DNA from: Methanobacterium sp.
GTDB lineage: Archaea > Methanobacteriota > Methanobacteria > Methanobacteriales > Methanobacteriaceae
Assembly (NCBI GenBank): GCA_049706655.1
Contig: JBNAKM010000003.1
Coordinates: forward strand, 121,587 to 185,586
Direction of reading: 5' to 3'
Length of the DNA: 64,000 nucleotides
Each line of letters opens with the position of its first letter. Within the stretch, counting starts at the first letter, position 1. Of this stretch, positions 2,830 through 35,304 are shown piece after piece. Under the pieces are notes generated by a model. It searched no databases. It saw only the letters and a list, made by a program, of their open reading frames with translations, and was not told where the DNA came from. Position numbers and translations under genes: made by a program.

Positions 2830-3735
2830 ATGAATCCGGAGTTAATCGGTAAAATCGCACAAATTGCATCAGTTCTTGAAGTAAGCGGCCATCCAAAACC
2901 AGGAAATGTACATCGTACGCAAGATTTCGACGACATGATTTTTGAGGACTTCCTTATAAGCGGAATTGTAATTGGAGATTTAATGAAAAAAGCTGCTGAA
3001 AGAGGAATGAAATATAAAGATGATTATTCACTTCATAAAATACGCCTTGGAGAAATAATAAAAGAAGCAGTTCTTGAAACAGATAAATGGATTGGAAATA
3101 ATACCAATTTAGGTATCATAATTCTTTTAACACCATTATGTGCAGCAGCAGGAATGAGCAGTAATATTGAAGAATTAAGGAAAAATGTAGAGAGAATAAT
3201 GAGAGCAACTACCTCTAAAGATGCAGTTAATCTCTATGATGCAATTAATGCTGCTGATGCCGGTGGAATGGGTGAACAGGAAGAGCTGGATGTTGCAGAT
3301 GCAGAAGCAAGGGGCAGAATTATAAAAGAAGATATAAACATGTTTAAGGTGTTTGAAATGTCTGCTAAATGGGATTTGTTATCTACAGAACTTACAACTG
3401 GAATGCCAGTAACTTTTGAAACTGGTTTTCCTACATTTAAAGAAATAAAAGCTGAATATGGTCTAAATAAAGCTACAGTTCAAACATTTCTTACTATTTT
3501 AGCCAATAATCCTGATACATTAATTTCCCGTAAATATGGAAATGACACTGCAAGAATAGTTTCAGCTGATGCAGATTCTATATTACAAAATGGTGGAATA
3601 TTAAATGCTCAAGGAGAGCTTTTAATACGCCAATTCGACCAACAGCTTTTGAAAAATAAATTTAATCCGGGAACAACAGCAGATATAACTGCTGCTTCAA
3701 TTATGGTAGCATTTCTGGATGAATTTGGACAGTGA
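2830..3735 (+). CDS. citG: CitG-family (triphosphoribosyl-dephospho-CoA synthase-like) protein
   Basis: LEVSGHPKPGNVHR, NTNLG, DTLISRKYG, NPGTTADITAA motifs. Confidence 0.88.
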   Translation: MNPELIGKIAQIASVLEVSGHPKPGNVHRTQDFDDMIFEDFLISGIVIGDLMKKAAERGMKYKDDYSLHKIRLGEIIKEAVLETDKWIGNNTNLGIIILLTPLCAAAGMSSNIEELRKNVERIMRATTSKDAVNLYDAINAADAGGMGEQEELDVADAEARGRIIKEDINMFKVFEMSAKWDLLSTELTTGMPVTFETGFPTFKEIKAEYGLNKATVQTFLTILANNPDTLISRKYGNDTARIVSADADSILQNGGILNAQGELLIRQFDQQLLKNKFNPGTTADITAASIMVAFLDEFGQ

Positions 3736-31453: not shown

Positions 31454-33232
31454 ATGTGTGGAATTATTGGATGTATATTAGATAATAAAAAAGCTGCTCC
31501 TGTGCTTTTAGAATGTGTAAAACGATTAGAATACAGAGGTTATGACTCTGTAGGGATTGCAACTTCTGGAAGTGCAATAAAAATTAAAAAAGATAAAGGT
31601 AAAATTAATGAAGTTCAAGGAAATTTAAGTTTAACTGATTTACCTGGAGAAATGGGGATAGCACATGTTAGATGGGCTACACACGGACTTCCAACGAAAG
31701 AAAATGCTCATCCTCATACTGATTGTAAAAACAAGATAGCTGTAGTACATAATGGAATAATAGAAAACTATAAAGAATTAAAAACTCAGCTAGAAGAAGA
31801 GGGACATATATTTAAATCAGAAACTGATACTGAAATTATTCCTCACCTTATAGAAAAATATATTGATGAAGGAAATAATTTTGAAGATGCGATAAGACTT
31901 GCAGTAAATAATCTCCAAGGTTCTTATGCAATTGCAGCTATATACAGTGATGAGCCAAATAAAGTTGTTGGAGTAAGAAAGGAAAGTCCTCTAATAGTAG
32001 GTAAAGGCGAAACTGAGTCTTTCATAGCATCTGATGCTCCTGCAATATTACAACACACAAATAATGTTATTTATCTTGAAGATAATGAAATGGTAATTTT
32101 AACTGGTGAAGGAATTATTATTAAAGATACTGATGGTAATATCACTCAAAAAGAAGTTTTTGTTATTGATTGGACTCCAGATATGGCTGAAAAAGGAGGT
32201 TACAATCACTTCATGTTAAAAGAAATACATGAACAGCCTGAAGCAGTTAAAAATACACTTATGGAAGCACCAGAAATTAAAAAGATAGTTCAAAGCTTCC
32301 CTCAATTTAATCGAATTTGTTTTGTTGCCTGTGGAACTTCTTATCATGCTTCCTTAATTGGTAAATATTTGTTTGAAAATATGGTTAGAGTTCCTACTGA
32401 TGTTATACTGGCATCTGAATTTGAATATTCAGCCAATACCATTGATGAAAACACTCTTATAATAGTTATAACTCAATCTGGAGAAACTGCAGATACTCTC
32501 AGGGCTTTAAGACTTGTTAACCATAAATCAAAGAGCCTTGCAATTGTTAATGTGCTTGGAAGTACAGTAACAAGGGAAGCAGAATATGTTATATATACAA
32601 GGGCAGGTCCAGAAATAGGAGTTGCAGCAACAAAGACTTATATAAGTCAATTAACATGTATATATCTTCTCGCTATTTTCATGAGTGGAAAAGAAGAACT
32701 TATGGAAAAACTAAATAAAATTCCCGATTACATGGAATCTGCACTTCAAAAAGAAGATATTATAAAAGAAATTGCTGAAAAATACAAGAATGCACCTGAT
32801 TTCTTCTTCATTGGAAGAGGATTTTCTTATCCCACAGCAATGGAGGGTGCATTGAAACTTAAAGAAATAACATATATTCACGGCGAAGGATATGCTTCAG
32901 GCGAGCTTAAGCATGGCCCTTTAGCCCTTATTGATGATGAAGTACCTGTAGTTGCAGTGGTACCTCCAGGTAAAAGCCACGATAAAACTTTAAGTAATGT
33001 AGAAGAAGTAAAAGCTAGAGGGGCTAAAATAATTAGCCTTGGATCATCTTCTGATAAAGATTTAAAATATCAATCTGATGATATGATAGAATTCGAGGAT
33101 GAAATCGATGAGATGTTTTCAGCTATACCTTATGTGATTCCATTACAGATTTTATCATATTATATAAGTGTTTTAAAAGGAATTGATCCAGATAAACCTA
33201 AAAATCTGGCTAAATGTGTAACTGTGGAATAA
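31454..33232 (+). CDS. glmS: Glutamine--fructose-6-phosphate aminotransferase
   Basis: [44 protein letters not shown]. Confidence 0.98.
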
Positions 33233-33300: not shown

Positions 33301-34113
33301 TTAATTAATAGAATTCGAATTTAAATCAAGATCCATAACATAATGCTCTTCTACAAAATAGCCTCTTTCCCCCAGTTCTTTAATTATTTCTACCAGGTTT
33401 TCAAGGTCTCCAGCTTCTGTTGATTCTACTTTAATGTCTTTTTCGCTAACGTATAGTTTATTGCTGGGTCTTTTAAAATCTTCAGCCACTTTTAACCAAA
33501 GGCTCTTTGGAACTCTTTCATTAAATAATTTAATACTTCCTGAAGCTTCTCGAACTACCTCACTATCTGTTTCAGAATCTTTTAATTTTTGGAAGCTTTC
33601 TATTTTTGTTTCAAGATTATTATGAATTCTTTCAGATTCTTTTACTCCATTTTCTTTTAATTTAGTAGTATATTGCTGTATTAATTCCATTAAATCTTTC
33701 TGGTTTTCAATTAACTCCTGTTCAGATATTTTTCTTTCTATTGCATAGGTAATAGCCCTTGAAAGTAGCCTACCACTTACATCCCCTTTCATCAGATAAT
33801 CCTGCGCGCCCTGCCTTACTGCTTTAACAGCCACTTCTTCGTCATCTAAACCACTTAATATTACTATTGGAAGTTCTGAATTGTATTCATGTGCTTTTGT
33901 AAATGTTTCAAGACCCATACTATCTGGTAAACTTAAATCTAAGAGCATAATATCATAGTTATCTTTACTTAAATAATTCAAGCCATCTTCAAGCTTTTTA
34001 GCATTAACTATTTCATATTGAGGCTTTGAAATGTCCTTAAACATTTCTTTAATGAATCTGGCATCTGCATCATTATCCTCTATAAGTAAAACTTTAACTA
34101 TTTTATTTAACAA
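33301..34113 (-). CDS. Response regulator: receiver, coiled coil and unassigned C-terminal domain
   Basis: LLIEDND, LLDLSLPD (phosphoacceptor Asp), ILSG, GAQDYLMKG; TTG start at 34113 behind AGGTGG. Confidence 0.9.
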   Translation of the reverse strand: MLNKIVKVLLIEDNDADARFIKEMFKDISKPQYEIVNAKKLEDGLNYLSKDNYDIMLLDLSLPDSMGLETFTKAHEYNSELPIVILSGLDDEEVAVKAVRQGAQDYLMKGDVSGRLLSRAITYAIERKISEQELIENQKDLMELIQQYTTKLKENGVKESERIHNNLETKIESFQKLKDSETDSEVVREASGSIKLFNERVPKSLWLKVAEDFKRPSNKLYVSEKDIKVESTEAGDLENLVEIIKELGERGYFVEEHYVMDLDLNSNSIN

Positions 34114-34279
34114 AATGACCACCTTCTACAATAATCCTAAAGGGAGTATTTTTACCAAAAACTTCTAAAATCAGTTATTGGTCAATACTATCTTACTATT
34201 TTTTAATATTTTTAATTTTTCTATATGATTTAAAAATGTTTTGATTATACTTTTTAGGATATATTTTGATTTTTAATAT

Positions 34280-34519
34280 TCAAGGATATGACTCATTTTC
34301 TGGAATTACTGAATAATGTTCTTCTACAAAGTATCCCCGGTCACCTAATTCTTTTATAATTTCAACTACATGCCCTAACTGCCTAGTATCTGTAGATCTT
34401 ACCCTAATTGTCTTTTCATTAATGAAAATCTCTCTATCATGTTTTTTATAATCTAGAGCTATTTGACACCATAATCGTTTAGGTACTTGTTCATTATTCA
34501 GTTCAATATATCCCTTCAT
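34280..34519 (-). CDS. 79-aa stand-alone paralog of the response regulator's C-terminal domain
   Basis: 37/67 ungapped identities to the regulator C-terminus, counted by hand; SD AGGAG. Confidence 0.85.
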   Translation of the reverse strand: MKGYIELNNEQVPKRLWCQIALDYKKHDREIFINEKTIRVRSTDTRQLGHVVEIIKELGDRGYFVEEHYSVIPENESYP

Positions 34520-34986
34520 AGTAATGTCTCCTATTTGGGTAAAACTTAATTTTTAACTTGAAATTTATCTGAAATAAAGCAAAAACTGTCCTTTTATCAA
34601 GAATATAGTTATGTTCTGCATAATATAAATTTATTACTAAATATTATTATTAGTGTAATTATGTAAGCAAATAGTTAAACTAAGAATAATAATGTATGTT
34701 GAAATAATTAATTTTAGATAAATCGATCAATATGTCCTCAATGTCAATAAATAGAATTTAAGGAAACTTAAGAAAATATTATGGTATTTTAACGTTAATT
34801 TACGTTTTAATAGGTTTACATTCCCTCAATTCCCTTGCTTTATCACTGTATATTTCAGTTTTACTTGCTTATGATATTTCTTATAGTTATTAACCAAATA
34901 AAGAAAATTATTTTGAAGTAATTTAGAAATATTTAAATCCTAAAAGGTTTATACTCGGTATAGACAAAGAAATTGAAGGGTTTATA

Positions 34987-35304
34987 GTGAATACAGCAAA
35001 AATAGGAAAAGTTTTCATTGTTTTAATGGTTTCACTTGTTGCATTTGGATGTGGATCATTTGCAAACGTATTAAATGCAGGCAATGATGTTACTAATGGT
35101 CTAATACCTTCAACATTTGCATTTTCAAGCAATGAACAGATTTTACAGATAGAAGATCCTTCATTTGAACCAGTTCATATAATGAGACATTTTTACAATA
35201 ACACTACAAATTTAACTAATTCGACTAATCTTAATAGCACTATTAGTTCTACAACTAACCAAACTTCAAAGCCAGTTAATGGAACTAAGAAGAACCAAAA
35301 TTAA
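34987..35304 (+). CDS. Exported or membrane-anchored small protein with Asn/Thr-rich tail
   Basis: N-terminal hydrophobic segment ending AFGC; tail dense in N-x-T sequons. Confidence 0.7.
   Translation: MNTAKIGKVFIVLMVSLVAFGCGSFANVLNAGNDVTNGLIPSTFAFSSNEQILQIEDPSFEPVHIMRHFYNNTTNLTNSTNLNSTISSTTNQTSKPVNGTKKNQN

Follow-up and report, generated by a model that had tools for sequence, protein, structure and literature searches.

The window analysed here is a stretch of 64,000 nucleotides from Methanobacterium sp. (GenBank assembly GCA_049706655.1, contig JBNAKM010000003.1, positions 121,587 to 185,586), and it carries two neighbouring genes on its minus strand: one encodes a response regulator with an N-terminal receiver (REC) domain, the other a free-standing protein of 79 amino acids that is a paralogue of the regulator's C-terminal output domain. 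Judged from its sequence, and as far as the searched libraries reach, the domain shared by these two proteins is a new archaeal output domain that is specific to its lineage and has a stand-alone paralogue. The free copy is rare, and in the lineages where it is intact it is held under purifying selection; it may act to tune the output of the regulator beside which it is encoded.

The free protein and the regulator C-terminus are paralogous

The relationship between the two proteins is clear from direct comparison. By BLASTP, residues 195-261 of the regulator (in its 273-amino-acid reading) align with residues 3-69 of the free protein with 37 identities and 53 positives over 67 positions, no gaps and an E-value of 2e-25; this reproduces exactly the gapless alignment with 37/67 identities reported in a preliminary description of this DNA that had been made from the letters alone. 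Across 51 free and fused domain sequences 22 columns are invariant, and the free copies retain every one of them. At several positions there are fixed differences between the free and the fused forms, for example L-W-C in place of L-W-L and Q-L-G-H-V in place of D-L-E-N-L. As DNA, the paralogues can be aligned solely over a 54-nt block of conserved motif, and the synonymous divergence (dS) between them is high and often saturated (about 1 or above); the duplication is therefore old when set against the split of the lineages that carry it. A whole-gene tandem duplicate that had lost its 5' part would be expected to leave a receiver remnant 5' of the free gene, and a search of that region found none.

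The receiver of the regulator belongs to PF00072: residues 11-114 of the 273-amino-acid reading score 70.3 bits (cut-off 30.2) with an E-value of 1.9e-19. In the numbering of the 270-amino-acid form, which is used from here on, E12, D13, D59, S87 and K109 do not vary among the 46 family members that were aligned. From their positions in the receiver fold these are presumably the acidic pair (E12/D13), the phospho-accepting aspartate (D59), the Ser/Thr residue (S87) and the conserved lysine (K109). The phospho-acceptor machinery of the receiver, which the preliminary description had taken to be complete in just these residues, looks intact by this measure.

Between the receiver and the output domain, AlphaFold2 run on the family alignment predicts a helix at residues 114-155, a break at Gly156, a second helix at residues 158-180 and then a stretch (residues 182-192) in which the predicted local distance difference test score (pLDDT) falls below 50. 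Gly156 is invariant in the family. The helix pair is a candidate dimerisation element, which could take the form of a coiled coil or of a helical hairpin. The connector had earlier been described as a coiled coil; two long amphipathic helices are indeed predicted, and a coiled coil is plausible on the model, but the connector is predicted to be interrupted at Gly156 and is followed by a flexible linker. Mean column identity is 0.83 in the output domain, 0.80 in the receiver, 0.74 in the helices and 0.39 in the linker, and 25 of the 68 columns of the output domain are invariant compared to 0 of 11 in the linker. The output domain is thus the best-conserved region of the family.

No family in the searched libraries matches the output domain

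Neither Pfam nor NCBIfam contains a family for the free protein or for the C-terminus of the regulator. When 29 members of the family were scanned against Pfam at E-values up to 10 no family recurred consistently, and a profile search of the PDB sequences with the domain gave nothing below E 0.05. The Pfam models for HalX, HalOD1, HalOD2, MetOD1, MetOD2, NitrOD1, NitrOD2, NitrOD5 and TackOD1 gave no match to the free protein or the regulator C-terminus at E-values up to 1, nor to the 29 members at E-values up to 10. A match to the NrpR regulatory domain (E 0.15) was seen with only one of the 29 members and was rejected.

A DNA-binding output such as OmpR/PhoB, NarL/FixJ or NtrC regulators have was also looked for; no winged-helix or helix-turn-helix family in Pfam or NCBIfam was found at the C-terminus of the regulator. 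The NCBIfam models of DNA-binding regulators that do match lie far under their cut-offs and cover the receiver, some of them extending into the helical linker, and for the C-terminal 89 residues Pfam gives nothing and NCBIfam a single insignificant match (E 0.018, 14 bits where the cut-off is 434). In JGI several family members go under "DNA-binding response OmpR family regulator" or "NarL/FixJ family", labels that stem from the receiver match alone. The DNA-binding names given to these proteins are not supported by the comparisons made here.

The domain is acidic, with an isoelectric point of 4.5-5.9, or 4.5-4.8 for the regulator's own output domain, and its predicted fold is beta-alpha-beta-beta-alpha-beta, both when the free protein is modelled alone (pLDDT 67) and when the domain is modelled within the regulator (pLDDT 55-63). 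Foldseek and a wide VIA-align search of the PDB with the model of the free protein returned only generic ferredoxin-like matches, the best of which reached Z-scores of 6.2-7.3 with E-values of 0.03 or higher; the structural-search tool itself notes that Z-scores of 7-8 are typical of models without a true match. The matches mix ACT domains, Lrp/AsnC C-terminal domains and stand-alone RAM proteins with unrelated ferredoxin-like folds, among them heavy-metal-associated domains, Cas2 and the palm of reverse transcriptases and polymerases. Within the reach of these searches, the proposal in the preliminary description that this is an undescribed output module is supported: there is no match in Pfam, in NCBIfam or among the PDB sequences, the fold matches are generic, and comparison by hhalign with the inferred MetOD4 (see below) gives a probability below 1%.

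The free copy is under purifying selection

In 5.8 billion sequences the free protein is represented by only four clusters at 90% identity, which are those of the window, of Methanobacterium sp. ACI-7 (87% identity to the window protein), of a metagenome contig from ENA (76%) and of a 1.2-kb Logan contig (66%). Its occurrence was also followed by profile search in 314 species-representative genomes of the Methanobacteriaceae, of which 23 fall in the GTDB genus of the window and 291 in 26 other genera. The free copy is present in two of the 23 (the window genome and ACI-7), and within the genomes of the genus that were searched it was nowhere seen away from the regulator.

A maximum-likelihood tree built from 56 domain sequences joins the free copies in one clade (100/100) that is nested among the regulator domains. 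The stem of this clade is long, at 1.29 substitutions per site, while the branches inside it are short, and the clade's internal branching, which pairs the window with ACI-7 and the ENA contig with the Logan contig, mirrors that of the regulators of the same hosts. This pattern fits a single origin of the free copy from a regulator C-terminus, with fast early divergence and subsequent vertical descent.

Comparison of the three intact free copies with each other shows a proportion of synonymous differences (pS) of 0.47-0.75 and of non-synonymous differences (pN) of 0.08-0.16; the pairwise Nei-Gojobori ratio of non-synonymous to synonymous substitution (dN/dS) is 0.03-0.15, with a Fisher p of 4e-9 or lower for each pair. 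When the same pairs of genomes are compared, dN is somewhat higher for the free copy than for the fused domain; between the window and ACI-7 it is 0.09 and 0.055, respectively. The reading frame, the length of 79 codons, the start codon and the Shine-Dalgarno sequence of the free gene are all retained in the three lineages. On these codon comparisons, neutral decay of the free copy in the intact lineages is ruled out, because dN/dS is low and all 22 invariant columns are kept. The preliminary description had argued against decay, and the intact copies show no sign of it; it had also named a strain-specific, neutrally evolving free copy as an outcome that would tell against its reading, and what is seen instead is three intact species-level lineages under strong purifying selection.

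The free copy is dispensable

The metagenome-assembled genome (MAG) MFD02809.bin.1.56 has flanks that are 93-96% identical to those of the ENA contig, and in it the free gene is missing through a clean indel of about 294 bp. The segment concerned (L027:101-394, corresponding to L041:~3263-3268) starts and ends with ATTAA, and the region upstream of the regulator is intact in MFD02809. The copy on the Logan contig (SRR19089673_99672, L062:740-994) has an in-frame TGA at codon 21 and the change G62C at an otherwise invariant glycine. Its true stop codon is also TGA, and the 84-amino-acid protein in the database arose from reading TGA as tryptophan. The Logan gene is probably a pseudogene, or else the contig, which comes from a single-run assembly, is in error. 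Since 21 of the 23 species genomes are without the free copy, and given the indel of MFD02809 and the stop codon of the Logan copy, the free gene is therefore dispensable. The free copy is accessory and not an obligatory partner of the regulator, because it is rare and because it is lost or broken in close relatives of its carriers.

The fused regulator is common within a single genus

The domain was found in 19 of the 22 other species of the M. bryantii/veterum/oryzae GTDB genus as well as in the window genome (20 of 23), with one fused copy in each. The same profile found it in none of the 291 genomes from the 26 other genera. A region-restricted homology search recovered 47 clusters of regulators of 259-316 amino acids with this C-terminus, all of them from Methanobacterium or from unnamed metagenome bins, and the named carriers of the fused form are M. 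veterum, M. bryantii/sp. A39, Methanobacterium sp. MBAC-LM, sp. ACI-7 and M. oryzae DSM 11106. Word-indexed searching with the 79-amino-acid query returned no longer proteins, a null result deriving from the method; the region-restricted and genome searches recovered the fused family. In one genome of the genus that is 99% complete (G004) the regulator has decayed, and all that is left is a remnant of the output domain beside glmS (L061:3270-3476), with 49% identity, three in-frame stops and no receiver. Together with three further species in which nothing matched, this remnant makes the regulator a common gene that the genus can do without.

Searched exhaustively with HMMER, 1.84 billion cluster representatives gave six matches only: the regulator cluster, the free-copy cluster, a 74-amino-acid fragment, two distant stand-alone proteins and one repeat protein. 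The two distant proteins, P0055 (E 8e-9) and P0056 (E 4e-5), are metagenomic and 81-82 amino acids long. As homologues of the domain, the stand-alone P0055 and P0056/P0063 are distant (24-36% identity), and no regulator adjoins them (L024:456-704 and L073:767-1012); the domain can therefore work on its own. Their neighbours are genes for GMP synthase, an amine oxidase and GtrA, or for aldehyde:ferredoxin oxidoreductase, an SRPBCC protein and pyruvate:ferredoxin oxidoreductase, and their source organisms lie outside the 314 Methanobacteriaceae species genomes. Two further sets of matches were set aside. The 695-amino-acid repeat protein P0054, in which five stretches were matched, is a tandem-repeat protein of surface type that shares only a short V-P-x-x-x-W-L-Q-V stretch, and was rejected as a chance match; weak matches to P0055 outside the genus (E about 1e-3) lie inside proteins read by eye as HypE-, agmatinase-, Trm1- and AglB-like and were rejected as spurious.

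Comparison with MetOD4 and other output domains

One genome of the set, G118, we take to be that of M. lacus AL-21, the source of the representative of the named output domain MetOD4. MetOD4 is described as a domain of about 80 amino acids without a Pfam model, present in three proteins with the architectures "MetOD4" and "REC-MetOD4" and in Methanobacterium only, and its representative is Metbo_1869/ADZ10090 (Galperin, Makarova, Wolf and Koonin 2018, J Bacteriol 200:e00681-17; PMC5847659). No alignment of MetOD4 is given in that paper or its supplements, and a literature search on ADZ10090/F0TAL8 and MetOD4 returns that paper only. The probable Metbo_1869 was placed at about 1.917 Mb in G118 by locus-tag interpolation from three regulators named in PMC5847659, and not by accession. 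At the expected position (L076:3340-4378) there is a regulator of 237 amino acids with, directly upstream and overlapping its start, an open reading frame (ORF) of 110 amino acids; the C-terminal 100 or so residues of the regulator are homologous to this ORF (28% identity, E 3e-11). This is the probable MetOD4/REC-MetOD4 pair because it matches the published pair of architectures.

When the profile of the present domain was compared by hhalign to the C-terminus of the inferred Metbo_1869 the probability was 0.1%, and to its upstream free paralogue it was 0.3%. The profile also found the present domain in none of the 32 genomes of the M. lacus genus, and ACI-7 has both kinds of pair, each at a separate locus. 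By these comparisons the present domain is distinct from MetOD4 and shares its gene layout. The resemblance lies in descriptive features and not in homology: both domains are small, lack a Pfam model, are restricted to Methanobacterium and occur REC-fused as well as stand-alone, and at the probable M. lacus locus, too, the fused copy has the free one directly upstream on its own strand. Between them there is no detectable sequence similarity, the representative of MetOD4 being the one inferred by locus-tag interpolation. The two also differ in their spread. Searching with the free protein of about 110 amino acids gave two matches per genome in 25 of the 32 species of the M. lacus genus and in 11 of the 23 species of the window's genus, including ACI-7, and wherever coordinates were compared these double matches were adjacent free and fused copies on the same strand. 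The MetOD4-type pair is thus widespread and its genes overlap in M. lacus, whereas the present free copy is rare and is set apart by a spacer of 166 nt. In the window genome, 89% complete, no MetOD4-type pair was found.

Further named domains of this general kind are HalOD1 (PF18545), NitrOD1-5, MetOD1 (PF18546) and TackOD1 (PF18551), which have 70-200 amino acids, a narrow range and no DNA-binding motif and occur both free and REC-fused; protein-protein contacts were inferred by the authors of the census to be the action of such lineage-specific REC-associated domains (PMC5847659). The present domain resembles them in its narrow phyletic range, in having no DNA-binding motif and in being both free and REC-fused. 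HalOD1 and NitrOD are, however, mostly multi-copy stand-alone proteins with few fusions, whereas the present domain is as a rule fused, once per genome, and only exceptionally free. The ferredoxin-like modules of the ACT and RAM type (the ligand-binding domains of Lrp/AsnC proteins) have the same order of elements and size as those predicted for the present domain, but the matches to them are generic (Z 7.3 or lower, E 0.03 or higher, with a model of pLDDT 67) and there is no relationship at the level of sequence. With CheY-type and other protein-binding regulators the present regulator has in common an intact receiver, the lack of a DNA-binding or enzymatic output and protein contact as the likely route of action; it differs from them in its long helical linker and in an additional domain that is dedicated and highly conserved.

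A possible role for the free copy

We propose that phosphorylation of the receiver at Asp59 would be passed through the two long, probably dimerising helices to the acidic alpha/beta domain, which has no DNA-binding features and would most likely bind a protein partner or a small ligand. The domain's invariant residues cluster in the loop between strand 1 and helix 1 (N-E-x-V-P-K-x-L-W), in the loop between helix 2 and strand 4 (K-E-L-G-E-R-G-Y-F) and in strand 4 (E-E-H-Y); a beta-alpha-beta-beta-alpha-beta fold would bring the two loops to the same end, where they would probably form a single conserved binding patch. The free copy would have arisen once from the regulator C-terminus and then have been inherited vertically, under purifying selection, in a small sub-lineage. 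It may bind the same partner or ligand as the fused copy without being subject to phosphorylation, and so could set a basal level of the regulator's output or compete with it, as an optional modulator and not as a required subunit. We put the probability that the free copy engages the same partner without phosphorylation control, and in this way tunes the output of the regulator, at roughly 0.45. The preliminary description had put forward three candidate roles for the free copy: a partner, a dominant-negative titrator or a phosphorylation-independent version of the fused one.

Several points weigh against this reading. The confidence of the fold prediction is low to moderate (see the pLDDT values above), and the conserved patch, although it probably is a single one, is derived from the topology and not from coordinates. 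The tree does not make the free clade sister to the regulators of its own hosts, a placement that is itself unreliable given 75 columns and long branches, and the long stem of the clade could equally mean that the free copy has changed its function. Further, with the free copy so rare, and with a deletion and a nonsense allele each seen once, whatever role it has must be weak or conditional.

It is possible, if rather unlikely, that the two copies contact each other, the free domain pairing physically with the fused domain and so capping or disrupting the regulator dimer as a direct partner or a dominant-negative form. Modules of the ACT- and RAM-like beta-alpha-beta-beta-alpha-beta kind often pair, and the generic fold matches include dimeric ACT and RAM domains as well as stand-alone RAM proteins; paralogues that are 55% identical and have kept every invariant residue could well retain a homotypic interface. 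The two genes are also adjacent and co-oriented in every lineage that has both, as are those of the MetOD4-type pair, in which the free gene again lies upstream of the fused one and the genes overlap. Against such contact, in about 18 species the regulator manages with no free copy at all, and the distant free-standing homologues have no regulator nearby. A prediction of the complex between the output domain and the free protein scored 0.00; controls were not run, and the result weighs neither for nor against binding. Alternatively, the free copy may have moved to a new partner or ligand, in which case its position beside the regulator would be no more than a trace of its origin. The long stem with short inner branches fits a burst of change followed by constraint, the fixed differences between free and fused forms (L-W-C and L-W-L, Q-L-G-H-V and D-L-E-N-L) are conserved, and the stand-alone homologues adjoin aldehyde:ferredoxin oxidoreductase or amine oxidase genes. 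We regard such an independent function as distinctly unlikely, since the retention of all 22 invariant residues, including those of both conserved loops, argues for the same binding chemistry, and within the genus the free gene is never seen apart from the regulator.

Two other explanations are very improbable. The free ORF could be the functionless leftover of a partial duplication; its presence in only two of 23 species genomes, its absence from a near relative through a clean indel and the copy in which the frame is broken by a stop and an otherwise invariant glycine is replaced would be expected of such a relic. Among the intact copies, however, pS is near saturation (0.47-0.75) while pN is only 0.08-0.16, and a neutral ORF of 240 bp would not have kept its frame, its length of 79 codons, its start and its Shine-Dalgarno sequence in three lineages through such divergence; recent transfer of a single allele among them is excluded by protein identities of 76-87%. 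The domain could also already have been described, as MetOD4 or as another named output domain from which it has diverged beyond recognition. Every descriptive feature of MetOD4 fits (about 80 amino acids, no Pfam model, Methanobacterium only, free and REC-fused forms), but the probable Metbo_1869 and its upstream ORF are unlike the present domain (0.1-0.3% by hhalign), the profile finds the domain in none of the 32 genomes of the M. lacus genus and the two pairs coexist at separate loci in ACI-7; for other named archaeal output domains, the Pfam models give no match. Modulation of the regulator through a shared target is the reading that we prefer to these four.

Archaeal response regulators rarely bind DNA, and lineage-specific archaeal output domains that are both REC-fused and stand-alone were catalogued in 2018 (PMC5847659), in a census that could only list them as domains of unknown action. 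New here are the domain, its confinement to a single genus and what the sequences tell of the free copy's evolution, namely its single origin, the purifying selection upon it and its presence or absence between near-identical strains. A further archaeal output domain is thereby added, whose fused gene is single-copy in almost every species of one genus. The most interesting lead is that the free-upstream-of-fused layout recurs for two unrelated domains; the recurrence in the MetOD4-type pair suggests that free-plus-fused pairing may be functional in general. It is conceivable, though we think it unlikely, that two unrelated output domains of the Methanobacteriaceae each independently gave rise to such a pair because both reflect a general, undescribed archaeal design, in which the free output domain and its receiver-tethered counterpart either join in a hetero-oligomer controlled by phosphorylation or compete for one target. 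Such a design, if real, would give two-component systems an output without DNA binding. The practical reach of the present family, confined as it is to one genus, is modest; the natural presence/absence pair formed by the ENA contig (contig_93212) and MFD02809, and the cultured, fully sequenced ACI-7 with both kinds of pair, are material ready for comparison.

The locus and its neighbours

The features of the two genes and of the regulator are collected in Table 1.

Table 1. Positions in the window of the regulator gene, the free gene and the parts of the regulator (residues in the 270-amino-acid numbering)
Feature	Position	Strand	Basis
Response regulator gene	33301..34113	minus	270 aa + stop, TTG start; database form also 270 aa
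Shine-Dalgarno AGGTGG of the regulator	34119..34124	minus	5 nt 5' of TTG 34113; the alternative GTG 34122 falls inside AGGTGG
REC domain, residues 8-111	33781..34092	minus	Pfam PF00072, invariant residues, pLDDT 81-95
Two long amphipathic helices, residues ~114-155 and 158-180	33574..33774	minus	AlphaFold2 secondary structure; invariant Gly156; hydrophobic residues at intervals of 3-4
Flexible, non-conserved linker, residues 181-191	33541..33573	minus	Low pLDDT, low column identity
C-terminal output domain, residues 192-259	33337..33540	minus	Conservation; beta-alpha-beta-beta-alpha-beta in two independent predictions
Stand-alone 79-aa paralogue of the output domain	34280..34519	minus	BLASTP to the regulator C-terminus; begins exactly at the first strand of the domain
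Shine-Dalgarno AGGAG of the free gene	34528..34532	minus	8 nt 5' of ATG

The longest ORF of the regulator has 273 codons (33301-34122, minus strand) and begins with GTG. The most likely start is nevertheless TTG 34113, which gives 270 amino acids, because GTG 34122 sits within the AGGTGG sequence and because the database calls for the window protein and its ACI-7 orthologue are of 270 amino acids. With this start each gene has its own Shine-Dalgarno sequence, as had been noted before; a GAAGGTG-type motif precedes the regulator in ACI-7, the ENA contig and the MFD02809 MAG also, and GGAG or GAGG is found at the same distance 5' of the free gene in all four free-copy lineages.

In the window the free gene lies upstream of the regulator with 166 nt between them, both on the minus strand. 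The regulator is an orphan, the adjoining genes including none for a histidine kinase. On its downstream side the glmS gene (31454-33232, plus strand) is convergent with it, and the order free gene, regulator, convergent glmS is the same in the window, in ACI-7 and in the ENA contig, these being the lineages for which enough DNA is present. The other side carries, in both the window and ACI-7, a small Asn-rich ORF and a DEAD/ResIII helicase gene. An ORF of 105 amino acids at 34987-35304 (plus strand) has a hydrophobic N-terminus ending in A-F-G-C-G-S, which resembles a signal peptide or lipobox, and a C-terminal tail rich in N-x-S/T sequons; no Pfam match is on record for it, and an ORF of this type (99-107 amino acids) lies between the helicase gene and the regulator at every locus of the genus that was inspected.

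Scans for sigma-70 promoters and intrinsic terminators are uninformative here, the host being an archaeon. About 100-130 nt 5' of the free gene, at about 34615-34640 (minus strand), there is a block conserved in all four lineages with a consensus of about A-T-T-T-A-G-T-A-A-Y-A-A-n-T-T-T-A-T-A, which is also present in the strain without the free gene. This block may be a promoter element, composed of a TATA box and a B recognition element (TATA/BRE), belonging either to the free gene or to the divergent small ORF.

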